IMG/VR virus record: IMGVR_UViG_3300030060_002740
Coordinates: 28,414 to 92,413 of that record
DNA length: 64,000 bases
Direction: 5' to 3' (one strand)
From: a virus
Below are positions 414-35,487 of the stretch, piece after piece. The notes beneath the pieces were generated by a model. That model did no database searches. It saw nothing but the letters and a program-made list of their open reading frames with translations, and was not told where the DNA came from. A program made the position numbers and the translations under genes. Numbering within the stretch: position 1 is the stretch's first letter; each line of letters opens with the position of its first letter.

Positions 414-655
414 TCTTCTTTCCCCCTATATGCCGGATGTTTCTTTGGTAAACGGTGTAGTCTACTTGTGATTAGTTTCTGCATTTGACGAGCAATCTCA
501 CCACTTCCATCTTCCCAACGCTTTACCAATCTAGGGTACTTATCATCTTCTTTGTATTGATGTACCATCTTCTCCTCTAACTCAGACAAGTCAATCTTAT
601 CCATTAGATGTTTAAGCACTTCATACTCAACGTGAATCTTTGAACCTGCTCTCAT
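410..655 (-). CDS. hypothetical protein
   Basis: 81-aa ORF with 4-bp overlaps on both sides. Confidence 0.6.
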   Translation of the reverse strand: MRAGSKIHVEYEVLKHLMDKIDLSELEEKMVHQYKEDDKYPRLVKRWEDGSGEIARQMQKLITSRLHRLPKKHPAYRGKEE

Positions 656-1242
656 ACGTTCAACACCATCTTATCTGCAACATTCTCATTATCAATGAAC
701 CATCTTTGAATCCACTGAGAAGCAACACCTGCAATTGCAATCTGCATACAGTTCACTTGTTCAGCACTACCATCCCAATCTCCACCTTGACAGGAGAAAG
801 AACCTTCTGAACCTGCTAACAAATCATCAACTAGATTCTCGTTGACCTTGTAAGAGATTAGTGCGGCGTTTCTGCCTTGCGCTCTCAAATCTAACCACTT
901 GAGTTTAGCGTCATCACCGTATCCTTGACGGTACAACATTCTTCTTACGGCTAAGTTATCTGCACAACAGATTACCAAATCATATCCTTTCAGTTGCTTT
1001 TCGACTAAAACCAAAAAGGGCTGTTCATCTACTAATTTCAACCCATTGACCTTCAATCTTTCATTGACGGCACTTACTTTGGTTTGACCCACTGTATCGG
1101 GGATGTAGTTCTGATATGTCAGATTCTTCTCTTCTAACTTATCATCGTCAAATACTGTTATGTCGTATATTCCTATGCGGGAAAGGGAGTCAATCAAATA
1201 ACTACCAATTCCACCTGCTCCTATTATCATTATCTTTCTCAT
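652..1242 (-). CDS. ThiF/MoeB/E1-like adenylyltransferase (ubiquitin-like activating enzyme family)
   Basis: IIGAGGIGS nucleotide-binding loop, DDDKLEEKNLTYQ, GQTKV, CCADNLAVR; candidate catalytic Cys in SFSCQ. Confidence 0.85.
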   Translation of the reverse strand: MRKIMIIGAGGIGSYLIDSLSRIGIYDITVFDDDKLEEKNLTYQNYIPDTVGQTKVSAVNERLKVNGLKLVDEQPFLVLVEKQLKGYDLVICCADNLAVRRMLYRQGYGDDAKLKWLDLRAQGRNAALISYKVNENLVDDLLAGSEGSFSCQGGDWDGSAEQVNCMQIAIAGVASQWIQRWFIDNENVADKMVLNV

Positions 1243-1251
1243 TTTTATTCC

Positions 1252-2163
1252 TCAAATTACTATTGCATTTTGCATTATATCATTCAATCCATATAGATGA
1301 ATGTTCTTTCTTTCTATTCCCAACATCTCACAAATAATATCAGTGTGATTACGTAGTGTTACCTCTGATACACTGAAATGTTGCTTTACGTCTATTTGCC
1401 TTATCGGTGTGTTAGTCAGTTTACCTACCATCCACAGTGTTGTTGCTAATTGGCTATCGGCAAACCTCAAATCTCTTTCATTGTATTTGTTCTGAATAAA
1501 CTCAACGAAATTGAAGTAGTCTCTTCTATCTTTAACCGACTGATAGTTTGATTCAAACCAATCCAAGAACCCCGTCACCATGTTGTGTATATCTCTTTCA
1601 GCAAAGATATGTGACTTCCTGTAAAACTTGGCAACCTTCTTTGCTATTCTTGAAACCCTTCTCATCTCTATACCGCTTGTCTTAACAAAGTCCTTCAATG
1701 AAACATTGCCATTATCCATCAACATGAAATATGCTAAACCTGCTGCCCTGTCATCTATCGAATGCCCCCGAAATATCTGATGTTGCATTAGCCGTTGGTA
1801 TAGGTATATTACATGGTCAACGTCTATTGCATCACCACTCTTGTAAGGAGACATGAACATAACACACAAACGATGTGCTTGAGCATCGGTTTTACTATGG
1901 TACTGTTTATCTGAAACAACTCTTCTTTGAAGTTTAGATAGCATATGCTTTCTTGTCAGTATGTTCTGCTCGTTGAAATTACCGACAAATGACCCCAAGG
2001 TTCTGTTATTATCAATAGAGTGTGTAAATTCACTGTTATGTGTTGCACGAACAGTCTCCTCAAACATATCGCAATTCAAGACTAAACCACAATCAGAACA
2101 TATTGTATATCCTAATCGCTCATCGAACTCAGACGAGTTTGAACCGCACTCCGAACACTTCAT
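1252..2163 (-). CDS. tfb: transcription initiation factor IIB (TFB)-like protein
   Basis: N-terminal Zn ribbon CSECG...ICSDCGLV, then two cyclin-like repeats (IFRGHSIDDRAAGLAY; VSEVTLRN). Confidence 0.8.
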   Translation of the reverse strand: MKCSECGSNSSEFDERLGYTICSDCGLVLNCDMFEETVRATHNSEFTHSIDNNRTLGSFVGNFNEQNILTRKHMLSKLQRRVVSDKQYHSKTDAQAHRLCVMFMSPYKSGDAIDVDHVIYLYQRLMQHQIFRGHSIDDRAAGLAYFMLMDNGNVSLKDFVKTSGIEMRRVSRIAKKVAKFYRKSHIFAERDIHNMVTGFLDWFESNYQSVKDRRDYFNFVEFIQNKYNERDLRFADSQLATTLWMVGKLTNTPIRQIDVKQHFSVSEVTLRNHTDIICEMLGIERKNIHLYGLNDIMQNAIVI

Positions 2164-5810: not shown

Positions 5811-6014
5811 TTAGCAAGAGCCGCCGACGATGGCAGGTACAAGGTTAACGGAATCAACGGCTGACCAATCAATGCTTGTCACATTTTCTCGGCTTACCAT
5901 ATCTCCATCAACATACACCCAATGAGTTGGGTGGTCTGCTATCTGCTCAATCATCTCAGCACTGGTTACTTCCAGTTCTGTGTGGCCTGTTTCATTCAAT
6001 ATTCTCAGTTTCAT
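5811..6014 (-). CDS. ubiquitin-like (beta-grasp, SAMP/ThiS-like) protein with GG plus a 2-aa extension
   Basis: 67 aa; WVYVDG and C-terminal VNLVPAIVGG-SC, typical of ThiS/MoaD/SAMP ends. Confidence 0.7.
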   Translation of the reverse strand: MKLRILNETGHTELEVTSAEMIEQIADHPTHWVYVDGDMVSRENVTSIDWSAVDSVNLVPAIVGGSC

Positions 6015-9589: not shown

Positions 9590-10270
9590 TTGTTGGTTTA
9601 GGCAAGAAAGCGTAGGGCAAAATAAGTCCCTTTAACCAAAGGTAAATGACTTGTGCTTTTTTACTTGGTAAACTTGCCTCATAATCCCCGCCCAACAGTA
9701 GGGGTTTGAGTGTAATAGTAAGGTGAAGACATTGCACCGCAACTGGTTTCGTCTTCATTAAGTTCGTATTGCCTCGTCAGGACTTACGCAATTGAACGCC
9801 TTACTCTTGTGTGATAACATGAGTGTGTTGGGAGTGCAGTTTTACCTGCACCCCCGTTATCAGGGTTTGAGTCCTGATTGTTTTGTGTGATATTTGTGAG
9901 TGTGTGTTGTGGGGATGAATAACGTACTGTGCCGTCTATCTCGGAGAGCATACAAAAAGTAAAGGTAACTCTTCCAATTTATTTACCGCAATGCCGACTA
10001 CTCTTTTTTATAGCGCAAAGTAACCCAATGGTATGTTCAAAGGGTTAGGCAACTCATTAACATCTTTCTAAATCTCACCCGCCTAAACGGGGCTTGACTT
10101 GTCCAGTGCCAAAGGCGAACTCCTGTATCTTAAATTCAATTACTGATAGATACCCACAATCCCAACTGTGCCGTTACTAGGTCACTCCGTCATTCCTCCT
10201 AAGAGTCACTACTTCGCTTGTCAGATGACAAACCGCTAAGTTTGCCAAACGCTTTTCACGTCCTTCCACA
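9590..10270 (-). ncRNA. putative structured non-coding RNA or long 5' leader
   Basis: No credible ORF; nested inverted repeats (9600-9606/9673-9679, 9717-9723/9799-9805, 9724-9730/9751-9757, hairpins at 9834-9851 and 9859-9878) separated by CA-rich linkers. Confidence 0.4.
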
Positions 10271-10279
10271 AATGTTGAG

Positions 10280-10700
10280 TATGTTCATTTATCATCCATT
10301 TCTCACGCCGATGATAAATATTAATCTGCGTAAACAATACCGTTTCGCAGGTTTTTGGCGTTCATTTCTCGTTTCTCACGTTTATCATCACCCCTAGTAA
10401 TAATAATAGGGGGTATAATATATTAGAGAGAGTGTGTGTGTAGTAGTAATAATATAATGATAATAATGATAAATGATAATTGAATATCAAAAAATATTGA
10501 TTCTATCCAAGAATCCCAACTTTCTACCCCTCGACCTTTCTCATTTCTATGATAATCGGTGAGAAATGAAAGGAGAAATCAGAACTCATATCAGATAGAA
10601 TATAACTATACTAAATCTCATACTAATATTAGTATAATATATTATATTATATTATGACCCTGTTTGATACCCGATAAATTATAGTGATATTTAGGGAGCA
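10280..10700. other. AT-rich, low-complexity strand-switch region (candidate replication origin or divergent promoter region)
   Basis: TAA/ATT runs, (GA)n(GT)n, perfect 10-bp IR at 10287-10296/10310-10319; lies near where gene orientation flips. Confidence 0.35.
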
Positions 10701-10864
10701 AACCTTTCGTGATGAACAACTAGTGTTCGTTAAGTAGCACATTAGGTAATGACTACGCTGAAGGGGTCGGATTCTACAATATGAAATCCACCTCCGAGGG
10801 TATATGTACCCTGCCCGACCACGCTGACCCCTCTGCCGACTTTATTTCCAATGCGTGTCTAACA

Positions 10865-10900
10865 ACCATATGGTAGGCTACTTTGTCAGACACCCCATAT
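10865..10900. repeat. palindromic cassette-boundary site 1 (core plus right arm only)
   Basis: ACCATATGGT-aggct-ACTTTGT-cagac-ACCCCATAT. Confidence 0.85.
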
Positions 10901-11210
10901 GAACCTTAGATTGGTCAGGGCTTACATCCCAAGTAGCCTTGTGAATGCCTGTTGTGAGAATATATGGGGCATCGGAACATTGACGCCAGTGCTATATGAG
11001 TTTTCAAGGTCATCTAAGATTCACTGTCCAGTCAGTGTCATGAGTAACTGAACCATTTGCCCGAAGAACTTTCCGTTCTCGCATTCCACTTGTGTTTTAC
11101 TCCTCTCATTAACTCTATTGTTTGTTCGTCAGCCCCATATGGGAATAGGTCGAGGATGAGAATGCGAACTATTCTCATAAATCATCTTCGCTGATGAAAC
11201 CTCGTTATGT

Positions 11211-11393
11211 TTATTGTCTAAGGATGGTATTGAATACCTTCAATGCTGAATCTAATTGTTCTAATGCACTGGGTAGGTCATCACTACGAACCTTAAGGCT
11301 CTTGATGATTAGAACGTGGTCTTGACCCGACTTGGAGTGAGCCACTTCTAACTCGTATGGGTATAACTTGCCCTCAACTATCTGTGCTGTCAT
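11211..11393 (-). CDS. hypothetical protein (cassette 1)
   Basis: 60-aa ORF; TATA-like CATATAT about 25 bp upstream, within the left arm of site 2. Confidence 0.55.
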   Translation of the reverse strand: MTAQIVEGKLYPYELEVAHSKSGQDHVLIIKSLKVRSDDLPSALEQLDSALKVFNTILRQ

Positions 11394-11416
11394 ACCTTGT
11401 ACCTACGAAGTGAGAT

Positions 11417-11484
11417 ATATGGGGTCTTTCCTACAAAGTGTCACTACCATATGGTTGGTATACTTTGTCAGATAAACCCCATAT
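11417..11484. repeat. palindromic cassette-boundary site 2
   Basis: ATATGGGG...ACAAAGT-N6-ACCATATGGT-N6-ACTTTGT...CCCCATAT. Confidence 0.9.
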
Positions 11485-11558
11485 AGTTAATATCCGACTA
11501 ATACAGTGCTTAGAAGGGTTTGAGAAAATCCGATTGTTTTGAATAAAGGTGATAAAAG

Positions 11559-12029
11559 ATGGAATGGAAAGAATTTTCAGGTACAACATTAGCATGGCTA
11601 AAGAATGACAAGACTGTTGATGAAGCAGACGCTTCAACTATCAGCAGAATGATTGAGAAGGGTAACGCAAACCCTACACGACAGGTTCGTATTTCGACCA
11701 CAATCCGAGAGATTGCGAGAGATTACGCAACTGCCCCATATGGACAGAGAGGATACGCTCTACCCACAAACGCACAAAGCATTGTAAACGATGTGACTGC
11801 AATAGTGAATGAGATGGCTTCTCTCTTTGATAACGGTGGAGATGCTATTAGAGCATTGCTTCTACCTAACCAAAGGAGCAAGGTCAAGCATTACCCTAAC
11901 GGGTCTGCTTGGGCCTCTTCAGTTCTAAAGAACGTGAACGGCGTAGCAGTCAAACTATCCAAAGACGGAACTTGGGATGGTTCGGCTGAGAGTCTATCCG
12001 CTACAATTTCGGAGGTAACTTCGGAATAA
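11559..12029 (+). CDS. hypothetical protein (cassette 2), paralog of 13210..13740
   Basis: 156 aa; shares the WxEF...W...KG...RxxRIxxTxR...D...P pattern. Confidence 0.75.
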   Translation: MEWKEFSGTTLAWLKNDKTVDEADASTISRMIEKGNANPTRQVRISTTIREIARDYATAPYGQRGYALPTNAQSIVNDVTAIVNEMASLFDNGGDAIRALLLPNQRSKVKHYPNGSAWASSVLKNVNGVAVKLSKDGTWDGSAESLSATISEVTSE

Positions 12030-12067
12030 GCGGGTAACTCTCATTGCCCTTCTAAGCACCCGTTCTT

Positions 12068-12130
12068 TGGGGTTTGAGATTACAAAGTATCTCTTACCAT
12101 ATGGTTTTGCACTTTGTCGTTAGAACCCCA
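12068..12130. repeat. palindromic cassette-boundary site 3
   Basis: TGGGGTT...ACAAAGT-N7-ACCATATGGT-N5-ACTTTGT...AACCCCA. Confidence 0.9.
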
Positions 12131-12158
12131 CTTATACCTCAGTTAGAACCTAATTAAC

Positions 12159-12347
12159 ATGAGTAGCAATCTATTTACAAAGAGACATTACGAATGGCTT
12201 GTTGATATGGCTTTATCCTTACAACTAACCCAAGAACAATGCAGAGAATTGGCTGATATGTTAGAGAAAACGAATCCTAAGTACAATAAGGCTAAATTCA
12301 TTACCACCATTGTCCATACAAGAAATACGAGGAGTGGAGGAATATGA
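12159..12347 (+). CDS. small hypothetical protein (cassette 3)
   Basis: 62 aa, FTKRHYE...NPKYNKAKF; TATA-like CTTATAC about 25 bp upstream. Confidence 0.65.
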   Translation: MSSNLFTKRHYEWLVDMALSLQLTQEQCRELADMLEKTNPKYNKAKFITTIVHTRNTRSGGI

Positions 12348-12463
12348 TAAGGGACAACATAATGAAAGTTTGCAGAGGATGCCTATACGTAATGGAACAT
12401 AAGTGGACAAGGAAAGGGTATGCCTGTAAAAGATGCCTACATATAACAACGGAGAGATATTAA
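12344..12463 (+). CDS. Zn-ribbon microprotein (39 aa)
   Basis: Manual translation with CRGC...CKRC; ATGA overlap and GGAGG RBS. Confidence 0.55.
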   Translation: MIRDNIMKVCRGCLYVMEHKWTRKGYACKRCLHITTERY

Positions 12464-12603
12464 TGTATAAAATAATAAGATTTAGGTTTGATGGAAATCA
12501 TAGAACAATGAAGAGAGGACTTACTCTTGAAGAAGCAAAAGCACATTGTCGCGACCCTGCAACTAGTGGCGACGGTTGGTTTGATGGATATACGGAGGAG
12601 TAA
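12463..12603 (+). CDS. viral microprotein (46 aa)
   Basis: MYKIIRFRF...GLTLEEAKAHCRDP...WFDGY; TAATG overlap. Confidence 0.6.
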   Translation: MYKIIRFRFDGNHRTMKRGLTLEEAKAHCRDPATSGDGWFDGYTEE

Positions 12604-12606
12604 GAT

Positions 12607-12735
12607 ATGATAGAGTGCATACGGTGCAAAGAATGCGGAAATATAACAATCAAGCCGGAGGATGAAGAGTTCTTCAGTGAATGGGATGAATGTATGTGTA
12701 GAGTAAATGAAATATTGGAGGAATACGAATTATGA
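12607..12735 (+). CDS. Cys-rich acidic microprotein (42 aa)
   Basis: MIECIRCKECG...CMC; GGAGG RBS. Confidence 0.5.
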   Translation: MIECIRCKECGNITIKPEDEEFFSEWDECMCRVNEILEEYEL

Positions 12736-12860
12736 GTATAATAACAAGTTGGAGAATTGAAGTAACGTTAGAGAATGGAGAAACAGTGTATGTATCAGAC
12801 ATGCCTAATGACGTTTCTAGTGTGGTTGATGAATACCTCACTGAGTTGGAGGCTGATTAA
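12732..12860 (+). CDS. acidic microprotein (42 aa)
   Basis: MSIITSWRIEVTLENG...; ATGA overlap and GGAGG RBS. Confidence 0.55.
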   Translation: MSIITSWRIEVTLENGETVYVSDMPNDVSSVVDEYLTELEAD

Positions 12861-12918
12861 ATGATGAAATTAGTTTTGAGAGTAGAAACAGAAGAATACA
12901 TCTTTGAAAGGTGGGTCT

Positions 12919-13080
12919 ATGCGTGAGAGAAGTAACGCATTACCGGAGGATAGTTTGCCCTCTTGGGTTTTCTATATGGAGGAATGCCCTAAATGCGATT
13001 GTGTAATCAATGAAGGCCATGACTACGCTGAATATGATATTGAAGTGTGTGACCCCGATGAATGCGGAGAAGAGGAATAA
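12919..13080 (+). CDS. Cys-rich acidic microprotein (53 aa)
   Basis: MRERSNALPED...CPKC...CDPDEC. Confidence 0.5.
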   Translation: MRERSNALPEDSLPSWVFYMEECPKCDCVINEGHDYAEYDIEVCDPDECGEEE

Positions 13081-13096
13081 ATCTCTTACTCCCATC

Positions 13097-13158
13097 AGGG
13101 TATTATGACAAAGTATCCTACCATATGGTATGAACTACTTTGTGAATTTGAATACCCT
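13097..13158. repeat. palindromic cassette-boundary site 4
   Basis: AGGGTATT...ACAAAGT-N5-ACCATATGGT-N7-ACTTTGT...AATACCCT. Confidence 0.9.
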
Positions 13159-13209
13159 AATACCCTAAATAGAGACATAATACCGTCTAAAACGACAGGA
13201 GAAACAAAT

Positions 13210-13740
13210 ATGACCGAAAACAAATGGACTGAGTTCACTGAGAAGATAACACAATGGAAAAGAGCGAATAAGGGATGGAACGACCCCGAACATAAGTCGT
13301 ATCAAGAGGATTTAGATTCTCTTGACCGAATCATGAAGAAGGGTAGGAAGGATGAAGGCCGAAGGGCTAGAATCATGTCTACTGTTCGCACTCTCTTTAT
13401 GGATATACCAACATCACCATTCAGAACAGGCAAAGCCTCTTCGATTGATGCGGGTATGCTTGCAAAATACAACAAAAGCCGAATTGATGCCCGAACTGCC
13501 TTGATTACTGCATGGAATGCGTCAAAGTTCCTTCAGATGTATGAAGTAAAGAGCAAAAGAGGCGGAGGCGGAGTTTTCGCCACTGCTGAAGAGTATGCTG
13601 ACTATCAATTGAGTTCATCGGACTCAAGAGTTCACTCAGCAATGCGTGGAACATCAAAAGACTATCAGTTCGCTGATGGTAAGCCTCTAATCAACCTTAT
13701 ACCTCAAAAGGTAGTACCTCTATCAGAGTTATTTGATTAG
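13210..13740 (+). CDS. hypothetical protein (cassette 4), paralog of 11559..12029
   Basis: Start re-assigned to MTENKW after an AGGAG RBS; 176 aa. Confidence 0.75.
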   Translation: MTENKWTEFTEKITQWKRANKGWNDPEHKSYQEDLDSLDRIMKKGRKDEGRRARIMSTVRTLFMDIPTSPFRTGKASSIDAGMLAKYNKSRIDARTALITAWNASKFLQMYEVKSKRGGGGVFATAEEYADYQLSSSDSRVHSAMRGTSKDYQFADGKPLINLIPQKVVPLSELFD

Positions 13741-13751
13741 ACGGACCAAAA

Positions 13752-13805
13752 GTAGGGGGGGACACCCTAAAACTCGCCTCAGTCCCCCTCTACACCCTTC
13801 GGGGT
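13752..13805 (+). terminator. hairpins after the cassette 4 ORF
   Basis: GTAGGGGGGGAC...GTCCCCCTCTAC, then ACCC-TTCG-GGGT (cUUCGg loop). Confidence 0.5.
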
Positions 13806-13865
13806 CTTATGTTCGCAAAGCAATTACAACCATATGGTTGCTACGAACTTTGTGACGTTAAACCC
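13801..13865. repeat. palindromic cassette-boundary site 5
   Basis: GGGGT...GCAAAGC-N7-ACCATATGGT-N8-ACTTTGT...AACCC. Confidence 0.85.
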
Positions 13866-13870
13866 TGAGA

Positions 13871-13889
13871 GGATGCCCGAAGGCAATCC
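13871..13889 (-). terminator. UUCG hairpin after the cassette 5 ORF
   Basis: Minus strand GGATTGCC-TTCG-GGCATCC immediately after the stop codon. Confidence 0.5.
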
Positions 13890-13891
13890 AA

Positions 13892-14155
13892 TCAGTATCC
13901 GTCCTGAACCCTAATTGTCTCAACGAAATACTTTGGGTTTTTGAGCATCTCACGGATTTGGTGCATCCTTTCAACGCCCTTACCACGAATAGCACCATTG
14001 AGGGTTGCAATTTCAGCAGTCAATCTGTCTATCTGTATTGCATTCATTCTTTTTACTTCCCGAATTGCACTTCTCTCATATTGGTGGTATTCTGTGATTC
14101 TAACTGTGTCATCTGCGTAGTTTCTGCTCTTTATTGCATACATTGTTCTTGTCAT
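13892..14155 (-). CDS. hypothetical protein (cassette 5, inverted)
   Basis: Start re-assigned to MTRTMYAIK (87 aa); TATA-like AATTATAC about 25 bp upstream. Confidence 0.6.
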   Translation of the reverse strand: MTRTMYAIKSRNYADDTVRITEYHQYERSAIREVKRMNAIQIDRLTAEIATLNGAIRGKGVERMHQIREMLKNPKYFVETIRVQDGY

Positions 14156-14176
14156 GTAGTATATATCCACCTTTTC

Positions 14177-14255
14177 GGGTATAATTAGGGTTCTTTCTGC
14201 AAAGCATAGAACCATATGGTAGTATATACTTTGTAGAAATGCTACCCTAATACCC
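14177..14255. repeat. palindromic cassette-boundary site 6
   Basis: GGGTATAATTAGGG...GCAAAGC-N5-ACCATATGGT-N7-ACTTTGT...CCCTAATACCC. Confidence 0.9.
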
Positions 14256-14274
14256 ACAATATCTTGATAATACC

Positions 14275-15039
14275 ATGAGCGTAACATACGAACAAACAGC
14301 GAAATACACATACAGCGAAGAGAAGTTTAGCGACAAAGCATTCTGCAAGGTTGCTAAGAAACTAATGGACAGAGGGTTGACTTTAGTTGGTTGGCACTAT
14401 TCAGCATCGCCACCAGAGATAGTTTATGGCGAAGTCGAAAAGGAAACAGTCGCAACCGACTATGAGATTACTATTGGTGGTAAATCTGCATTCACTACTC
14501 AGTACCGTTCAACTGCTAACGATATTGTAGCGGAGTTGGAAGGCAATGGTTTTGATGGTGGTATTTCAGAGGTCACTAGGAAGACCACTAAGATGGTGTG
14601 GCAACAGCCAAAAGGCTCTAAGATGTATATGCAAGTCTCAAACTTTGAGGGTGAATTGTCATACTACAAGCAGTATCTCACATACAGTATAGTCCATCCA
14701 AGGAATGACGGCATGGAAGATGACTTGGCTGAAGTGGAACTAGTACCTAAACTCACTAACTCAAACGATGGAGTCATACTGACTATGAAAACGATTCTAA
14801 AGTTAGATAGGGTTCTGAGGGCTGACAGAGTAAAACCGAGTATGGTTGATATTACTCTACATGACTTTGGCCTAATCAAGAGTAAGGTCGAAGACGCACT
14901 CGGTATTCGTAATGCTATATTGAAGGACTGTACTTTCAATGTGAATACCCTCAGTGAAACTGAGTGTTCACCCGATATCATTTACCAAAGGGAAGTAGCG
15001 ACCCAATCAGCGAGGGATGGCCCACAAGAAGAAGAATGA
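14275..15039 (+). CDS. hypothetical protein (cassette 6)
   Basis: 254-aa ORF followed by a GAAA-loop hairpin at 15053-15066. Confidence 0.7.
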   Translation: MSVTYEQTAKYTYSEEKFSDKAFCKVAKKLMDRGLTLVGWHYSASPPEIVYGEVEKETVATDYEITIGGKSAFTTQYRSTANDIVAELEGNGFDGGISEVTRKTTKMVWQQPKGSKMYMQVSNFEGELSYYKQYLTYSIVHPRNDGMEDDLAEVELVPKLTNSNDGVILTMKTILKLDRVLRADRVKPSMVDITLHDFGLIKSKVEDALGIRNAILKDCTFNVNTLSETECSPDIIYQREVATQSARDGPQEEE

Positions 15040-15061
15040 ACGTAAACCCATTGTCCCGAAA

Positions 15062-15102
15062 GGGGCTTTGTGGTCGTTTATACAAAGTTATCCAACCATA
15101 TG
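15062..15102. repeat. palindromic cassette-boundary site 7 (left arm plus core only)
   Basis: GGGG...ACAAAGT-tatcca-ACCATATG. Confidence 0.8.
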
Positions 15103-15179
15103 CTTTGCATTGCAAAATTTTTTTGTTTCATTGTTTCTATTACCCAAAGTTAATTTGTATAACCTCTTAGCGAACACCA

Positions 15180-23522: not shown

Positions 23523-24942
23523 TTTAGATTTTGTTTCAGCAATGGATATGGAACTATCTAAAACTTCATTTCCATACTTTTTTCAGAATGTTCTTGGAAT
23601 GATGTTTCCCCCATACATGCAAGAATGGCTAGAGACAATGGAAAAAACAGATAGAACTGTTATTGTTTGTAGTCGTGACCACGGAAAATCTGTTTTTATG
23701 CACAGTTGGGTAGTATGGAATCTTGTCTTTCAAGAACCACCATATCAAATGCTTTACATTTCCTCTAACCAAAAGCAGACTCTTGTTCACATGAGAGAGA
23801 TTGACAGATACTTCAATCACCCTGCTCTTAAGAAATACAAACCCAGTAGAGGTTGGGCTATTGGAAATATACAATTAACAAACGGTAACGCTATCTTGGA
23901 GCGTTCCGTTGGTTCTCAAATCAGAGGACTTCACCCACAGGAGATTATCATTGACGACCCTTTGAAGGAGTTCAGTCTTGCAGGTATTCAACGAGTTACT
24001 GATTGGTTCTTCGGAGATATGATACCAACACTTCATCATACATCTAAGTTGAGGATGATTGGAACTCCATTTACCTATACAGATATCTTTGCTCAGTTAG
24101 AGGAAAATGAAGCATATTCTGTTCAGAAGTATCCATGTCTAAACTCTTTGAATGAACCACTATGGCCTGAGCGTTGGGACTATGACGCACTAATGAAGAG
24201 AAAAGCAGAAATAGGCTCTCTCAAGTTTACAAGAGAATATCTTTGTGTTCCTATATCTACGGGAACTGCTCTATTCAATCCTGAGTTTATCGAGAAGTGC
24301 AAGAACAAGGACTATGTTTTGAAACTTGGACATCGTAAGGAGAAGGGATACAAGTATTATGTGGGCGTTGACCCTGCCATCTCAACAGATGGAGACTACA
24401 ATGTAATCACGGTTTTGGAAGTTGATGATGAGAAAAATAAAACCATAGTCCATGTAGATAGGGCCAAGAATGTAGAGTTCAGAGAGAACATAGAGAAGAT
24501 TAGATTAATTGGTAAAATCTTTGAACCAGAAGAAATACTCTATGAAACCAACACGTTTGCAAAAGCATTCACACAGGAACTAAGAAACATATCCGATTTG
24601 AATGTTAGAGATTTTACCACTACAAGAAAAAAGAAGCAAGAGATAATTCTGAGTCTTCAAATGAACATAGAAAATGGAAAAATAAACTTTCCATATGGCG
24701 ATAATGCAAGCAGAAGATTGACGAATGCTTTGATAGAGGAACTGTCTATGTTCTCTATTACCACTGCCGGAAAGTTTGAGGGTGTAGGAGCGCATGACGA
24801 CTTAGTTATGAGTTTAGCATTGGCAGTGGCTTGTGCTACAAAGACATCAGATGTGTTCCTGTTGTTAGATGATATGGGAATATTTGATGAGCCTAAACCA
24901 ATGAACAGGTCTTTAGGCGGAATGATGGGGCTGAACTTCTAG
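23509..24942 (+). CDS. terL: terminase large subunit
   Basis: SRDHGKS Walker A, IIIDD Walker B, IGTP coupling motif, GVDPA and HDDLVMSLALA nuclease motifs. Confidence 0.93.
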   Translation: MELDDLDFVSAMDMELSKTSFPYFFQNVLGMMFPPYMQEWLETMEKTDRTVIVCSRDHGKSVFMHSWVVWNLVFQEPPYQMLYISSNQKQTLVHMREIDRYFNHPALKKYKPSRGWAIGNIQLTNGNAILERSVGSQIRGLHPQEIIIDDPLKEFSLAGIQRVTDWFFGDMIPTLHHTSKLRMIGTPFTYTDIFAQLEENEAYSVQKYPCLNSLNEPLWPERWDYDALMKRKAEIGSLKFTREYLCVPISTGTALFNPEFIEKCKNKDYVLKLGHRKEKGYKYYVGVDPAISTDGDYNVITVLEVDDEKNKTIVHVDRAKNVEFRENIEKIRLIGKIFEPEEILYETNTFAKAFTQELRNISDLNVRDFTTTRKKKQEIILSLQMNIENGKINFPYGDNASRRLTNALIEELSMFSITTAGKFEGVGAHDDLVMSLALAVACATKTSDVFLLLDDMGIFDEPKPMNRSLGGMMGLNF

Positions 24943-24953
24943 GGGGGTAGTGC

Positions 24954-26282
24954 GTGACGGAGGAAGATAGCGAAATCTTGGAAGATATTCTTGAGCGAAC
25001 AAAGCGAAGAGAGACTTTAGACCAAGAAATCGAAGAACGCACTAAGGATTTGAAACGCGCTTGGCTATCCAGTGTTCCAATAGAAGACCACAGTATTTTG
25101 GAAAAGAAATACGCAGAAGATTTCAGAATGAGCCTATCTGATGCAAGAAAGGAATTGAAGTATACTCTGACTAAGTATGAGATTGAGGGTTCTGATATTC
25201 CAAAGACAATAAAGGAATTGAAAAAATACCGAAGGACTCTCAAAGGAGAGGACAAGGTGAAGATTACCAATTCGATTGAGAATTTAATCAAGGCATATTC
25301 TGACCACTTGGATAAGAGTATGGATGACATTTACTGGATTAGTAAGTATAAACCAGTTCTCAAAGACATGACTTGCTCGGAAGATAATCTAATCAAACTA
25401 TCATATGTTGATGATGCAAGTACAAGGCGAGAACTAGTTGATACTCTCTGTAAATATTGGGAAGCAAAAATAGAGAAGGAGGGTATGCCCTTCAATTCTG
25501 ACTACTCAAGATTAACAAAGGAAATGACTAACACAAAAAGACAATTCAAAAGATTGCTGAAGAAGCATATGAAAACCACTTCTCCAAAGGATAAAATCAA
25601 ACATCACATTCTAAAATCAATATGTGAAGAACCCGGAATATCAGCAAGGCAGATACATGAGAGACTACCGAAGAGTCTCTTTACTAGAACAACACCAAAC
25701 GTTATTGCTAAAATGGCTAAACAGGAAAACATCACCACTGTTAATGGTGCTTTCTACAAGTTTAGTGATGAGATAAAGAAAGACATCTATGCCTATACTG
25801 CTGCGTTTATTGATTCTGATGGCTACATTACAATGGATAAGAATTACAATCCAAGAGTCGGTTTGGTTGCAACAGGAGAAAGAGGCAAGGCTTTCATGAT
25901 GGAGATGCACAAGTCATTGGGATGTGGCAGATTGCATCTTGACCAAAAATCTCCACAGGACACAAGACCAGTAAACAGGTTGAACTTTTATTCGGGTGCT
26001 GATGTTACAGAACTACTCACAAAATGTAGGCCACATTTCAGAATGAAAGGTAAGAATGCTGACATTCTATTAGAGTTAATCAGAATGAAGAAATCGCATA
26101 AGAAGGCTGATTGGTACAAAGAAAGAAGGGAAGAACTATTCAAGTTGATGAAATATGAGAATCATAAAGACCACGTAGGTTATGATTTCACACGATATGA
26201 TATTGATATTGATAGTGTTGCCAAGTTACATGATAATTGTAAGATGGGTGCAATGGATGTTATTGAGGGGGTGATTGCATGA
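24954..26282 (+). CDS. LAGLIDADG endonuclease-domain protein with helical N-terminus and winged HTH
   Basis: YTAAFIDSDGYI motif, MHKSLGCGRL, LLTKCRPHFRMK; HTH-like PGISARQIHERL. Confidence 0.75.
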   Translation: MTEEDSEILEDILERTKRRETLDQEIEERTKDLKRAWLSSVPIEDHSILEKKYAEDFRMSLSDARKELKYTLTKYEIEGSDIPKTIKELKKYRRTLKGEDKVKITNSIENLIKAYSDHLDKSMDDIYWISKYKPVLKDMTCSEDNLIKLSYVDDASTRRELVDTLCKYWEAKIEKEGMPFNSDYSRLTKEMTNTKRQFKRLLKKHMKTTSPKDKIKHHILKSICEEPGISARQIHERLPKSLFTRTTPNVIAKMAKQENITTVNGAFYKFSDEIKKDIYAYTAAFIDSDGYITMDKNYNPRVGLVATGERGKAFMMEMHKSLGCGRLHLDQKSPQDTRPVNRLNFYSGADVTELLTKCRPHFRMKGKNADILLELIRMKKSHKKADWYKERREELFKLMKYENHKDHVGYDFTRYDIDIDSVAKLHDNCKMGAMDVIEGVIA

Positions 26283-27176: not shown

Positions 27177-28835
27177 ATGGTAGAAGAAAGAAGAAGATTT
27201 AGTTTAACAAATTTGTTTAGGCAAACTACGCCTAAGCCCGCAGATAGAACAGTATACAATCCGGGTATACAAGAGAGAGATAATTCATATCTTTTGACTA
27301 GTCCAATCATCTATCACATAGTATCTCAATCAACTATTGTTAGAACCTGTATCACTCAGTTGAAACAGGAGATATTCAGAAGAGGATATCATTGGGATTC
27401 TAAGTTTGCTCTAAAATGTAGAAATTGTGGTAAGGAACACGAAAACACAGTAAAGCAATGTGTTGAATGTGAAAGCACTGATTTGGCAAAGCCTAATGTT
27501 GAACAACTAAAATATGCTAAAGAGTTCTTAGATGGGTATGTGAATTGCTCAGAGCAGATGTTTATTGATGTCCTAAAGGAACTTGAAGATGACTTGAATA
27601 TAATGGATGACGCATACTTGGTAATGGTAAAGGAATACTATGCCGATAACAACTCCAAGGTCAGGATGCACAGAATAAAGGAAGTATACAGAGGCGACCC
27701 AGTTACTATGCACATCTATTCAAACGATTTGGGAGAAAGAGGCAAAGCCGGATATACTTGTTTAAGACATAGAGATAGAGTATATTCAAGTCCAACTGAA
27801 CTTTGCGAAACTTGTAATTCAGAACTCTATCCTATTCATTATGTTAACAGGGTAAATGGTGAAGAACAGTATTTCGTAAAGGGAGAAGTTCTACACTTCA
27901 GCAAATACTCTCCAAGTAGATTATATGGACTTTCACCTATAATCACTCTATGGAATAATGTTACAACATTGATTGCTATGGAGAATTATGTTAACTCATC
28001 ATATACCAAAGCAAGAATGCCGAAGGGACTTCTTGCTGTTCAAACAAGAAACATGGATTCGATGAAGTCATTTTGGCGTGGTGTCAAAGAAAAGATGGAG
28101 CAAGACCCACACTTCATACCTGTAATGGGAATAGAGGGAGAAGGCGGTAAGGGTTCTGTTGAATGGGTCAAGTTCATGGACAGTCTAAAAGAAATGGATT
28201 ACATACAAGTTAAGGATGATTTGAGAGATAGGATTTCAGCATTCTATGGTGTGAGTAAAATCTTCATGGCAGATAACTCTGCAAGTGGTGGATTGAACAA
28301 TGAGGGTATGCAAGTATTAGTTACTAATAGAGCAGTTGAAATGGCTCAAACAATTTGGAATAACTATGTGTTCCCATTTATGACGGAAGAATTTGGTATA
28401 ACTGATTGGCGTTTGAAACTACCACCATCCGAAGAAGAGGATGAAATTGCAGTTCTACGTAAAAGAGAGATAGAAGTGAATGTCGCTGCTGCAATTAAAA
28501 ACTTAGGATTTGAAGTAGACATGGATGATGAAGGTGGATTCATTTACACAAAACCTGAACCTAAAGAACCAACAGAAGGAGAAGGTGAAGAAGGTAGCGA
28601 AGAAGTTGAATTAGACCCATACGCCGGAACTGATATTGATGCCTCTCAACTAGGACAATTACAAGAACAAATGATGGGTGGTGGAAATAAGTCTGAGAGC
28701 AAACCTCAAGAGAACCCCCCCGCTACGAGAAACAAACCATCTATGGCAACTGGGCCGGATAAAAGATTTACAGGATTACCAAGAGAAGCCGGAAATGAAA
28801 ATGTTGACGAAAGAACAGAGAGGAGAGTAGGATGA
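27177..28835 (+). CDS. portal protein with Cys-rich insertions
   Basis: Downstream of TerL; EVLHF...YGLSPI, ISAFYGVS, LNNEG portal-type motifs; acidic C-terminal tail. Confidence 0.85.
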   Translation: MVEERRRFSLTNLFRQTTPKPADRTVYNPGIQERDNSYLLTSPIIYHIVSQSTIVRTCITQLKQEIFRRGYHWDSKFALKCRNCGKEHENTVKQCVECESTDLAKPNVEQLKYAKEFLDGYVNCSEQMFIDVLKELEDDLNIMDDAYLVMVKEYYADNNSKVRMHRIKEVYRGDPVTMHIYSNDLGERGKAGYTCLRHRDRVYSSPTELCETCNSELYPIHYVNRVNGEEQYFVKGEVLHFSKYSPSRLYGLSPIITLWNNVTTLIAMENYVNSSYTKARMPKGLLAVQTRNMDSMKSFWRGVKEKMEQDPHFIPVMGIEGEGGKGSVEWVKFMDSLKEMDYIQVKDDLRDRISAFYGVSKIFMADNSASGGLNNEGMQVLVTNRAVEMAQTIWNNYVFPFMTEEFGITDWRLKLPPSEEEDEIAVLRKREIEVNVAAAIKNLGFEVDMDDEGGFIYTKPEPKEPTEGEGEEGSEEVELDPYAGTDIDASQLGQLQEQMMGGGNKSESKPQENPPATRNKPSMATGPDKRFTGLPREAGNENVDERTERRVG

Positions 28836-32868: not shown

Positions 32869-32895
32869 ATCCCTACGAAAGACTTGAGGGGTCAG

Positions 32896-35487
32896 ATGCC
32901 GCAAACAGGAATAGAGTTTGAAAAAGAAACTAGTGGCCTCACAAAACAGGTCTTAGATTTCTTTGAGAAGGTTCGTTATTCCTATCTTTCAGCAAGAGAA
33001 AATCCCGATGACTACGGGGATGCTTGGAAAAAAACAGTAAAGGATATCAGAGAACAATTAGATTCTCTTGATGATTTCAGCAATGAGTTGAAAACTTATG
33101 TCAAGGAAGACTTGGCTCAATCTGATGAAGCATACAATCCAAAGTCAAGACAAGCAAAAGAATTGTACGAAGCGGTAAAAGAACTTAGGTTCAAATCCGA
33201 AAAAGTCAGTGACCCGTTTTCAAAACAACTTGGTGATGATGTAATACCTAAGTTGTTGAAGAATGAAGCATTATTCGCTTATTTTATTCATTATGCACTA
33301 CGCTCTCATGCAAATGCTTTACCTGAAAAAGCGTGGAAGGCAGTGGAACTCAAACCTGACAAGATAACTCAAAACGTGATGGGTTTGGATTTAGAGCCAA
33401 AGGACATACCGCTATACATCATAGAACATTATGGCGGGGAAGAGGAAGACACAAGAAGAGTAGAGAGTAAGTTCAAGGGGGCTTACAAATTATTGGAGAA
33501 GGTGTATGCCTCTCAATATGATGAGGGTAAATGGGAGAATCTTGTTGAGTTAGATATTGCTAAGAGTGAGCAAAAGCAAGAAATTGATTTTATCGTTCCC
33601 AACAAACCAATGTATAGAATCTTTGAGATAGATGACATGAAGGAAATCAAGGGTCTTACTGGTGAGTACATTGTCCAAGAGAAGTATGACGGGATGAGAA
33701 TACAACTTCACAAGTTCAATGGTAAAGTCAGAATATACTCTTTCAATGAAAAAGACATTACAGATAAGTGTTCAAAACAAGTTAAGCAATTAGAAAAGAA
33801 AGCATTTGGGGATTGTATCTTAGATGGAGAACTCATGTTGTTTGACGGTGATGAACCACTACATAGAGCAGATACAATAGCCCATGTTTTCAAGAACAAA
33901 AAGGGTGGTGAACTAAAAGCACACGTCTTTGATATTATGGTTCATGAAGGAAAGAACATCGCTGATGAAACCCTAAGAGAAAGAAATAACATTCTTCTGT
34001 ACCAATACGCTCAACATTCATCAGAAGACTTAGCATTCCCATCTAAGAAAGATACAAGGATTGCTGACTCCATAAAAGAAGTAGAAACCTATGCTAAAGA
34101 AATAATGCAGTTACCTGCATCAGAAGGTGTGGTAATCAAGGATATAGAATCAACATACTACATTGGGGTTAAGAAAAATCCTAAGTGGATTAAGTGGAAG
34201 AAGTTCGTTGACTTGGATGTTATAGTTTTAGATGATAAGAAAACAAAGAGCAACTTACATTCCTACACAATGGGAGTTGGGCCAGTAAATGCTGAAACTG
34301 CTAGGAACTACAAGACTGTTGAGTTTGAGGATAAAGACTACTTAGAAGTAGGTAAGGCTCTCAATACAAAACAATCAGTAAAGATTGGTAGCATAGTCAG
34401 AGTGAAAGTTGACGAGGTTAAAAAAGGAAAGGACGGTTTCAAATTGTTCTCTGCTAAAGTTATAGAGATACCTGAAGTAACACAATCGGATACTGTTGAA
34501 ACATTAGAGCAATTAGCAAGTAAGACAAAGAAATCTCTCAATGCAATCGGATACACCTTTGGAGAAACAGTAGGCGGTGCATTTGAAGTTACATCAGGAA
34601 TGAAGAACCCAAGAGGTCAGACTAAGAAAGATGTAAAGAAAGGATATTACATTACAGACCACATACATGGAACTGCTGAGATTATTCTAAAGGAGGACAT
34701 GGATGGTTTCACAATCTATGGGTTTGAGGGAGATTCTCTTATGCAGAAGAATGCTCTATACAACATAGATATGTGGAAAGAACAAGTGGTTAGTATAATG
34801 AAAAGTAAACGTTCTACCTTTAGATTGGCTATCCGCAATGAGATATTAGACAGTGGTAGAGATAATCTAAGGTTTGAGCAGATATTAGATTATGTCAAAG
34901 ACAAACATCAAGGAACCTTTGAGGATTTATTCGACTCAGATGAAGGAAGATTAATGTCTTGGATGAAACAACAAGAAGATTTGGTTTATCTTCATCCCAA
35001 CAAGTTTACTGCAAGAGAAGACGTATTGGAAAAGGATGTTGAAGAATTACAAAAAGAAGAAATGGGAAAGTATACAATTAATCTTAGAGAAGATAATAAT
35101 GTTGATTTAATCATAGAATACAAAGACGAGCGTATGGGTTGGACTATTGATATTGAAGAGTCAGAAGACATATACGAGTTGTTTGGTAAATCAGGTAAGT
35201 ATCCGGCTATTGTTATGAAGAATGCAGGTGAGCCTAAGAAAGTCTTAGATAAAGGAAATATAGAATTAGGAATTCAAAAAGATGGATACCATGAATATAG
35301 ATTAGATGGAGATAAGTTCCAAACAAGAATGCACTTTAGAGTAATTCCTTTAGATGAACAAAAGAGTTGGATAGCATGGACAGGAAAGAAACAGGAAATG
35401 TTAGACGATGAAGAGAACCCAAATAAATGGAATCTGAATGAAGACTCTTATGCTCAATTACCTTTCCCTTCGGATAAAAAAGAGTAA
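32896..35487 (+). CDS. lig: ATP-dependent DNA ligase with N- and C-terminal extensions
   Basis: Motif I EKYDG, III ILDGEL, IIIa HVFDI, IV EGVVIK, V WIKWK, followed by an OB-fold-like region. Confidence 0.9.
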   Translation: MPQTGIEFEKETSGLTKQVLDFFEKVRYSYLSARENPDDYGDAWKKTVKDIREQLDSLDDFSNELKTYVKEDLAQSDEAYNPKSRQAKELYEAVKELRFKSEKVSDPFSKQLGDDVIPKLLKNEALFAYFIHYALRSHANALPEKAWKAVELKPDKITQNVMGLDLEPKDIPLYIIEHYGGEEEDTRRVESKFKGAYKLLEKVYASQYDEGKWENLVELDIAKSEQKQEIDFIVPNKPMYRIFEIDDMKEIKGLTGEYIVQEKYDGMRIQLHKFNGKVRIYSFNEKDITDKCSKQVKQLEKKAFGDCILDGELMLFDGDEPLHRADTIAHVFKNKKGGELKAHVFDIMVHEGKNIADETLRERNNILLYQYAQHSSEDLAFPSKKDTRIADSIKEVETYAKEIMQLPASEGVVIKDIESTYYIGVKKNPKWIKWKKFVDLDVIVLDDKKTKSNLHSYTMGVGPVNAETARNYKTVEFEDKDYLEVGKALNTKQSVKIGSIVRVKVDEVKKGKDGFKLFSAKVIEIPEVTQSDTVETLEQLASKTKKSLNAIGYTFGETVGGAFEVTSGMKNPRGQTKKDVKKGYYITDHIHGTAEIILKEDMDGFTIYGFEGDSLMQKNALYNIDMWKEQVVSIMKSKRSTFRLAIRNEILDSGRDNLRFEQILDYVKDKHQGTFEDLFDSDEGRLMSWMKQQEDLVYLHPNKFTAREDVLEKDVEELQKEEMGKYTINLREDNNVDLIIEYKDERMGWTIDIEESEDIYELFGKSGKYPAIVMKNAGEPKKVLDKGNIELGIQKDGYHEYRLDGDKFQTRMHFRVIPLDEQKSWIAWTGKKQEMLDDEENPNKWNLNEDSYAQLPFPSDKKE

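Follow-up and report, generated by a model that had tools for sequence, protein, structure and literature searches.

A palindromic site joining predicted promoter-gene-terminator units, and probably serving as their exchange point, in a presumed magrovirus-like virus

The closest analogues that we find, by their described features, for the array treated in this work are the promoter-early stem-loops (PeSLs) of T4-type phages and the intergenic-repeat promoters of haloviruses. T4-type phages carry PeSLs as mobile regulatory cassettes in their hyperplastic regions, and PeSL mini-circles were shown experimentally in these phages (Arbiol et al. 2010, PMC2839356; Comeau et al. 2014, PMC4122927). 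In HF2 and other haloferacalesviruses, intergenic repeats of class I (58 bp) and class II (29 bp) are proven promoters (PMC8707807), and the positions of the HF2 repeats are strongly conserved within the genus (Russ, Pfeiffer and Dyall-Smith 2021, PMC8707807). For the haloarchaeal myovirus HGTV-1, a review summarises a motif of TATA box and inverted repeat located upstream of most open reading frames (ORFs) in the left part of the genome (Sencilo et al. 2013, via PMC3950731). According to the same summary, its authors compared the motif with PeSLs and suggested that it functions in regulation and shuffling (PMC3950731). Here we describe a repeated palindromic site and the six gene cassettes that it bounds, located in a stretch of 64,000 nucleotides (referred to as the window) which corresponds to positions 28414 to 92413 of the 92,413-bp IMG/VR viral record IMGVR_UViG_3300030060_002740, rated 96% complete.

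Judged from its sequence, the array appears to be a hyperplastic accessory-gene region in which each unit is its own transcription unit. It probably consists of accessory promoter-gene-terminator units joined by a palindromic junction that is also their point of exchange, much as in PeSLs. The core of the site, ACCATATGGT, is present in six exact copies at 10865, 11446, 12096, 13120, 13829 and 14211. These are the sole exact copies in the 92,413-bp genome, for which about 0.1 copies would be expected as estimated from base composition. When at most one mismatch was allowed, the observed count was reached in none of 100 shuffles. A variant core, ACCATATGC, is located at 15095. The five inner copies carry arms of the sequence [A/G]CAAAG and CTTTGT on their two sides and, further out, GGGGT/ACCC[C/T] boxes. 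Site 1 has the right arm only, and site 7 the left arm only. The seven sites, of which only the last was assigned a strand, are as follows.

10865-10896: site 1, left end of the array; core at 10865-10874, inward right arm ACTTTGT at 10880-10886 and ACCCC at 10892-10896, without an outward arm.
11433-11468: site 2, a 36-bp arm-core-arm palindrome with GGGGT/ACCCC-ATATA boxes on both sides (11416-11485); predicted divergent promoter.
12082-12117: site 3, a 36-bp palindrome with ACCCCACTTATA on its right.
13108-13143: site 4, a 36-bp palindrome.
13815-13853: site 5, a 39-bp palindrome between two convergent genes, with no departing gene.
14199-14234: site 6, a 36-bp palindrome flanked on either side by ACCCTAAT boxes; predicted divergent promoter.
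15082-15127, plus strand: site 7, the polar array-end element, with a normal left arm and the core variant ACCATATG, which is abutted by CTTTG and followed by an oligo-T run.

An earlier note made from the letters of the window alone had listed the same six cores and the variant, with both arms at the five inner copies, a single arm at the two outer ones and inverted outer flanks, and all of this was borne out. The span between the arms that it gave, 36 bp at four of the five inner sites and 39 bp at site 5, was confirmed in the window, but its near constancy failed beyond it. From CAAAG to CTTTG, the span is 35 to 41 bp in close relatives and 27 to 41 bp across the family, and a fixed span of 36 bp was rejected as a family rule in view of the variable offsets in relatives. 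A hairpin or cruciform formed by the site itself was also rejected, as the spacers that separate the core from the arms lack complementarity.

A scan of IMG/VR for the exact pattern of CAAAG, core and CTTTG revealed arrays of the site in 105 related loci, many of them on contigs of 90 to 100 kb and with up to ten cores per array. From these loci, which are given L numbers below, 479 distinct sites were collected. The arms are located 9 to 14 nt from the centre of the site, and left and right offsets are uncorrelated (r = -0.04). With respect to the adjacent genes, 50 sites are in convergent, 78 in divergent and 220 in tandem context. The same pattern yielded 22 scattered single matches in unrelated bacteria when 185,579 prokaryote genomes (596 Gb) were scanned, and about 20 were expected by chance according to our estimate. 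Occurrence at chance level implies that the site is not a host operator copied by the virus, and this candidate was dropped.

The site is phased to start codons. The distance between its centre and the ATG of departing ORFs shows a sharp peak at 51 to 57 nt, which comprises 143 of 428 cases. Alignment of 174 site halves on the ATG placed CTTTG at -42, ACC[C/T] at -31 to -28, an A/T box at -27 to -22 and a C or T at -1 (91%). This layout is that predicted for an archaeal promoter consisting of a transcription factor B (TFB) recognition element (BRE), a TATA box and an initiator (Inr), from which a leaderless mRNA would arise. In the window, cassettes 1, 3 and 6 conform to it (57, 59 and 60 nt, respectively), and the genes of cassettes 2, 4 and 5 are preceded by short Shine-Dalgarno leaders. 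Outside the array, genes are organised in long operons with Shine-Dalgarno-led starts, and the array therefore constitutes a separate regulatory class. On the sides of sites at which a gene arrives, the 50 nt before the arm have a mean of -12.6 kcal/mol, as compared to -8.0 for shuffled sequences and -7.1 for departing sides (p ~1e-20). The pattern CCC-N3-9-GGG occurs on 37% of arriving but on only 3% of departing sides. By these sequence features, a composite of promoter and adjacent stem-loop terminator is present. Rfam and tRNA scans of the region came back empty. The cassettes and their hairpins (z-scores in brackets) are listed below.

10897-11432, minus strand: cassette 1; leaderless gene of family 1 (60 aa, 11211-11393) whose ATG is 57 nt from the centre of site 2.
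About 11150-11205, minus strand: terminator hairpins of cassette 1 (z = -3.1).
11559-12029, plus strand: cassette 2; gene of family 0 (156 aa) with a Shine-Dalgarno-led start 109 nt from the site centre.
12040-12078, plus strand: hairpin of cassette 2 (z = -2.3).
12159-13080, plus strand: cassette 3; operon of six to seven ORFs of 39 to 62 aa, the first ATG 59 nt from the site centre and leaderless.
13210-13740, plus strand: cassette 4; gene of family 0 (176 aa), a paralogue of the cassette 2 gene.
About 13794-13805, plus strand: UUCG hairpin of cassette 4, weak (z = -0.8).
13892-14146, minus strand: cassette 5; gene of family 20 (84 aa) with a predicted promoter on the left side of site 6.
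13862-13896, minus strand: UUCG hairpin of cassette 5 (z = -3.1).
14275-15039, plus strand: cassette 6; gene of family 9 (254 aa), leaderless, its ATG 60 nt from the site centre.
15040-15082, plus strand: GAAA hairpin of cassette 6 (z = -2.7).

The mixed orientations reported before (-,+,+,+,-,+) and the paralogy of two cassettes were confirmed, the latter for cassettes 2 and 4 (BLASTP E = 8e-8). A hairpin had been described near the end of most units. Stable ones follow cassettes 1, 2, 5 and 6 (z = -2.3 to -3.1), that is four of the six, but those after cassettes 3 and 4 are weak. The description of the cassettes as self-contained transcription units agrees with the predicted promoter and terminator that each of them has at its sites. 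An operator or promoter module, which the earlier note had offered as an alternative, also found support, since the phasing between site and ATG places the site first of all in a promoter/terminator module.

Comparison of related viruses, which the earlier note had proposed, showed that content, order and orientation of the array differ and that breakpoints map to the palindrome. The outcome is therefore not the one named in that note as a refutation, namely an identical order in relatives or breakpoints that bear no relation to the palindromes. The conserved blocks that flank the array are the same in all oriented loci, leftward (replication) on one side and rightward on the other. The nearest relative, L080 (about 91% identity), is collinear with the window. 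It has an extra 106-bp interval at site 6 and a replaced stretch which ends at the core of site 4, and the core of site 6 marks a drop in its identity to the window from 91.5% to 76.9%. The family 20 cassette (13892-14146 in the window) is found in three slots and in both orientations across the window and its more distant relatives L076 and L016.

To locate breakpoints, homology blocks between loci were defined by at least 80% identity over at least 250 bp. Of 328 block ends within arrays, 140 (43%, as compared to 5% expected for a uniform distribution) fall 0 to 24 nt past the centre of a site, and 89 distinct sites are involved. The ends pile up 0 to 19 nt past the centre, and hardly any are seen at -60 to -1, the range occupied by the hairpin or the promoter box of the shared unit. 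Enough sequence beyond the site was available for 146 site-proximal ends. In 57 of these no homology was present beyond the site, in 37 the homologue was elsewhere or inverted, and 52 were collinear; hence, 94 of the 146 ends were non-collinear. A cassette at 4172-4886 of L010 (86% identity to 10780-11494 of L082) is inverted in place relative to both flanks, and at its right end and in the left flank the identity changes partner between ACCAT and ATGGT. A second core-to-core inversion distinguishes L018 from L095. Both ends of the in-place inversions lie 5 to 14 nt from site centres. In addition, six cassettes are shared from site to site (83 to 86% identity) by contexts that are otherwise non-collinear. 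Crossovers can be placed only to about ±20 nt, because the alignments run on through the conserved core and arms.

We give little credence to the view that the site is purely an operator or promoter, with exchanges taking place anywhere and only those recombinants surviving that retain whole units. It would account for the strong promoter phasing and the terminator hairpins, and it has a precedent in the HF2 intergenic repeats, which are proven promoters with no recombination role claimed (PMC8707807). Shuffling within cassettes also speaks for it: gene combinations inside a cassette vary in places (e.g. families 9-1-21 versus 13-1-21), and gene adjacency is kept at 0.36 across a site versus 0.41 without a site when family 0 is excluded. 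An apparent two-fold loss of adjacency across sites vanishes without this multi-copy family and was therefore not relied on. Selection that merely keeps units whole would, however, tolerate breakpoints anywhere from the terminator to the next promoter, yet the ends lie within about 20 nt of the core and few are at -60 to -1. Moreover, precise core-to-core inversions recur, and an operator dependent on symmetric binding does not account for the lack of outward arms at terminal sites.

The ends of the array are polar. Terminal sites have an inward arm in 58 of 77 cases and an outward arm in 10 of 77, and arms are present in 85% of the halves of inner sites. An end element with a normal left arm, the core ACCATATG(G), CTTTG abutting the core and an oligo-T run occurs 56 times in the loci. 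Of 34 oriented loci, 33 have it as the last site and on the plus strand. Site 7, which had been interpreted as a half-site, is thus a conserved polar array-end element and not a decayed half-site. With its T run, the element would be suited as an archaeal terminator at the close of the array, and it might act as a primary insertion site.

These ends bear on a further explanation, a dedicated site-specific system, which we consider unlikely though credible. In such a system the 10-bp core ACCATATGGT would be the crossover point and the arms would be accessory sites of an unrecognised viral or host recombinase. Circular, promoter-bearing cassettes would be captured at an armless primary site, for which the polar end element is a candidate, and later be inverted, excised or exchanged between co-infecting viruses. 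The inward-only arms at terminal sites are as expected if arm-core-arm circles enter an armless core. At several junctions, the 10-bp core is the point at which the identity between genomes changes, and whole cassettes were inverted in place from core to core. Likewise in favour are the crowding of block ends just past the centre, the presence of arms whatever the gene direction, and the absence of the site, beyond chance level, from cellular genomes. The start-codon phasing, by contrast, reflects selection for transcription, which alone could be enough to fix the core, and breakpoints are resolved only to about ±20 nt. Further, a DNA contig from an independent study spans 11504-14894 without any difference, with sites 3 to 6 in identical order. 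Joints indicative of inversion, circles or empty sites were not found at cores among assembled contigs of public runs, which hide rare forms. Several contigs of another run end at the cores of sites 2 and 5; they were not counted as evidence.

A candidate enzyme was sought in the whole 96%-complete genome. PF00589 (Phage_integrase) gave no match at E ≤ 1, and the same search gave matches in 14 of 14 control genomes. PF00239 (Resolvase), PF01870 (Hjc), PF01797 (Y1_Tnp) and PF01844 (HNH) were likewise without matches, and PF07282 gave sub-threshold zinc-ribbon matches only. Pfam and PHROGs searches with 40 window proteins detected no DNA-binding, recombinase or nuclease family in or beside the array, among cassette and neighbouring proteins alike. 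This outcome is consistent with the earlier remark that no recombinase is visible in the window. In the absence of a recognisable integrase, resolvase or other recombinase, the array is not an integron or shufflon. The likeness to these systems that had been put forward also fails on the promoter-bearing cassettes and on the inversion of complete genes. The core-precise switches, the armless outer sides and the polar end element nevertheless leave a small share of probability with a dedicated enzyme.

We return to the PeSL-like reading of the array as promoter-gene-terminator units with a palindromic junction, which would work as follows. At each junction, a G+C tetraloop hairpin of the arriving gene would be followed by the arm [A/G]CAAAG, the core ACCATATGGT, the arm CTTTG[T/C] and then the promoter boxes. 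These would comprise ACC[C/T] (BRE-like), the A/T box (TATA) and the initiator, with transcription starting at the ATG or a few bases before it. About one third of the units would produce leaderless mRNA and the rest mRNA with short leaders. The palindrome, about 55 bp upstream of the starts, would probably bind a virus-encoded factor, most likely a dimer, which co-regulates this class of genes. Recombination between any two copies would delete, insert, replace, move or invert whole units intact. Units could be moved unbroken because the same short palindrome, identical on both strands, is present at every junction. Exchange may proceed by a general route, be driven by microhomology or involve a helper protein. 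We infer promoter activity, a binding protein, an early timing of expression and the enzymology of exchange.

Several observations weigh against this reading. Arms are equally frequent on arriving (88%) and departing sides (90%) and are missing outward at terminal sites; they are therefore not simply promoter elements. Site 5 is located between convergent genes where no promoter is needed. Equal arms and convergent sites together imply that the palindrome is more than a part of a promoter. RNA contigs from public runs (Logan contigs) lie inside cassette genes. No protein that binds the site was identified by family searches and fold models among the cassette and neighbouring genes, and the loose spacing of 9 to 14 nt between arm and core fits a rigid dimer poorly. 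A contiguous identity of 10 bp is short for ordinary homologous recombination. The adjacency values given above, which hardly differ with and without a site, belong here as well.

Magroviruses rank among the most abundant viruses in the surface ocean and, to our knowledge, neither they nor their hosts are in culture. The genome of this work encodes, in the window, a terminase, a portal protein, a ribonucleotide reductase, an ATP-dependent ligase and a TFIIB-type zinc ribbon protein. Upstream of the window it encodes a family B DNA polymerase (PolB) split in two ORFs (564 and 306 aa), an RFC-like ATPase, a second ligase and a Cas4-like nuclease. Homologues of the polymerase are found on marine contigs of about 90 to 99 kb. 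A leftward replicative block, a structural block, a split PolB and marine homologues are thus combined in this genome, as in group B magroviruses. The virus is treated here as a magrovirus-like tailed virus of marine archaea, because, according to Philosof et al. (2017, PMC5434244), only magroviruses of group B have a PolB split within the catalytic domain; the link to the host is taken from the literature. In a tblastn search of the terminase against a GenBank phage collection, all matches were below 30% identity, and a cultured relative for comparison is therefore lacking. Promoters or regulatory repeats are not mentioned in the magrovirus and Poseidoniales-virus papers PMC5434244, PMC10160649 and PMC11706807, and the term 'palindrom' gave no match in those of them in which it was sought. 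A full-text literature search with the core sequence returned only unrelated primer-type matches.

One product of this genome may be connected with the promoter layout. The TFB-like gene at 1252-2163 (minus strand) encodes a protein of 303 aa with a Pfam TFIIB zinc ribbon, and its nearest Atlas clusters are viral TFIIB-repeat families (scores 0.95-0.97). A phmmer search of this protein against PDB gave no match. It might be a virus-specific TFB that reads the unusual ACC[C/T] box at the BRE position.

Genes are directed leftward to the left of about 10 kb and rightward to the right of about 11.5 kb, which places the array at the strand switch. This position and the coincident minimum of the cumulative GC skew would be in line with iterons of a replication origin or origin-recognition boxes, another alternative raised in the earlier note, as would the adjoining conserved non-coding stretch of about 970 bp. 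The skew is not independent evidence, because it follows gene direction here. Iterons are hardly to be expected to be spaced by whole genes (about 300 to 1,500 bp) instead of being clustered round an AT-rich unwinding element. Number and spacing of the sites also vary freely among relatives, and the sites are phased to start codons. We regard this explanation as very improbable.

The stretch of about 970 bp on the left of site 1 (9896-10865) is conserved in four related viruses, with 30 to 88% identical columns per 40-nt window of the alignment, and contains no long ORF that is open across all four. Near 10005-10015, a conserved minus-strand CTTTG...TATAAAAAA box is present, which is probably the promoter of the leftward replication operon. 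A contig from an RNA library (10000-10168) has a depth of 207 as compared to 8 to 26 for cassette genes. RNAalifold predicted conserved stems with variable loops in 9896-10865 and only 4 compensatory pairs. As to its nature, we consider a non-coding RNA, the main leftward promoter region and the origin as possibilities.

The window cassette proteins had no Pfam or PHROG family match above curated thresholds. Family 0 is the commonest cassette gene, with the window pair and 132 further copies in 81 loci (134 members). Its proteins have about 170 aa and often occur in two or three copies per virus. The structure model of family 0 is all-alpha (predicted local distance difference test, pLDDT, 88). 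Family 1, found in 39 loci and in both orientations, was modelled with a pLDDT of 79. Neither model had a fold match in PDB. The cassette genes are likely host-takeover or counter-defence genes, which makes the array a good place to seek such genes. Several of the ORFs in cassette 3 contain paired CxxC motifs, and one has a weak match to the TiaS zinc ribbon (E = 0.001). Three DNA runs contain contigs in which, within 10912-11277, position 11204 leads back to 10912 through one and the same insert of about 20 nt, and other contigs diverge at 11153 and 11321 in cassette 1. Variants of cassette 1 with breakpoints off the palindromes thus circulate.

Two kinds of short interval were seen between neighbouring cores of relatives. 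Closely spaced cores are found, for example, at L020 478-610, L045 4110-4306, L064 1463-1579 and L070 12752-12872. Some neighbouring cores 95 to 132 bp apart enclose a strong Shine-Dalgarno sequence and a micro-ORF of 6 to 11 codons with an acidic end (M-F/Y-D-D-E-D-stop types), and these intervals are without the usual inner arms. Other intervals of 72 to 166 bp contain no ORF (L080 7861-7967, L010 4886-5052, L082 10625-10780 and L054 2822-2917). They have inner arms TGAAAAATGT in place of ACTTTGT and, in some cases, an internal inverted repeat. Intervals of this second kind may represent small RNA genes or empty junctions.

Elsewhere in the genome, the leftward block encodes a ThiF/E1-like protein (window 652-1242, Pfam E = 1.7e-18) and, at window 5811-6014, a protein of 67 aa whose ThiS-like match is weak, a pair that hints at a virus-encoded ubiquitin-like system. 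The two genes for ATP-dependent DNA ligases are located at window 32884-35487 and at genome positions 23970-25526 (L110 9970-11526). One of the two ligases is part of a protein of 867 aa, whose gene is located in the structural half of the genome.

The promoter model that follows from the alignment can be tested, with the core at about -55, the arm at -42, ACC[C/T]/TATA at about -30 and the start at the ATG. The site also provides a sequence tag by which the accessory-gene region may be recognised in any related contig, and it defines a place of gene exchange in these viruses. Promoter-terminator junctions that double as recombination points would allow ORFans to be shuffled without being silenced, and the palindrome would make inversion as easy as deletion. 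The PeSL idea would thereby be extended from T4-type phages to a lineage of archaeal viruses. If, on the other hand, a dedicated enzyme were at work, the system would be an archaeal-virus counterpart of the integron and the enzyme one of a new kind.

The site system is an analogue of known systems and a homologue of none among PeSLs, HF2 repeats (compared by description) and the HGTV-1 motif. With integrons and shufflons it shares arrays of gene units that are bounded by short imperfect palindromes or inverted repeats and are gained, lost, reordered and inverted, and the polar end element is a candidate for a special terminal site. Unlike in integrons (IntI, attI, attC), no IntI-type recombinase was found, each cassette has its own predicted promoter and terminator instead of a common Pc, and its sites are double-strand palindromes with an invariant core whereas attC sites act as folded bottom strands. 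It differs from shufflons (Rci, sfx) in that no tyrosine recombinase was found and whole genes, not alternative C-termini, are inverted.

The HF2 repeats are likewise repeated intergenic sequences of an archaeal tailed virus, with AT-rich promoter motifs, and are kept among relatives. In the array described here, by contrast, content, order and orientation of cassettes vary, the palindrome is the hallmark, and the promoters are predicted. HGTV-1, as far as the review summary goes, resembles it as an archaeal tailed virus with a TATA-like box and an inverted repeat before many small ORFs. It belongs to another virus lineage and has another motif, and the summary includes no breakpoint analysis (PMC3950731). 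PeSLs and the present sites are both composites of a terminator hairpin and a promoter with G/C-rich stems, and both are repeated between ORFan genes in one plastic region. In both, breakpoints of insertions, deletions and replacements lie in the element, and the units would remain expressible after shuffling. The two are unrelated in sequence, and the predicted BRE/TATA/Inr layout with leaderless starts takes the place of the sigma70 promoters of PeSLs. Homology patches of less than 50 bp in T4-type phages contrast with a 10-bp perfect palindrome and variably spaced short arms in the present array. Here, inversion is a regular outcome because the junction is palindromic, and the array has polar ends with a dedicated end element.

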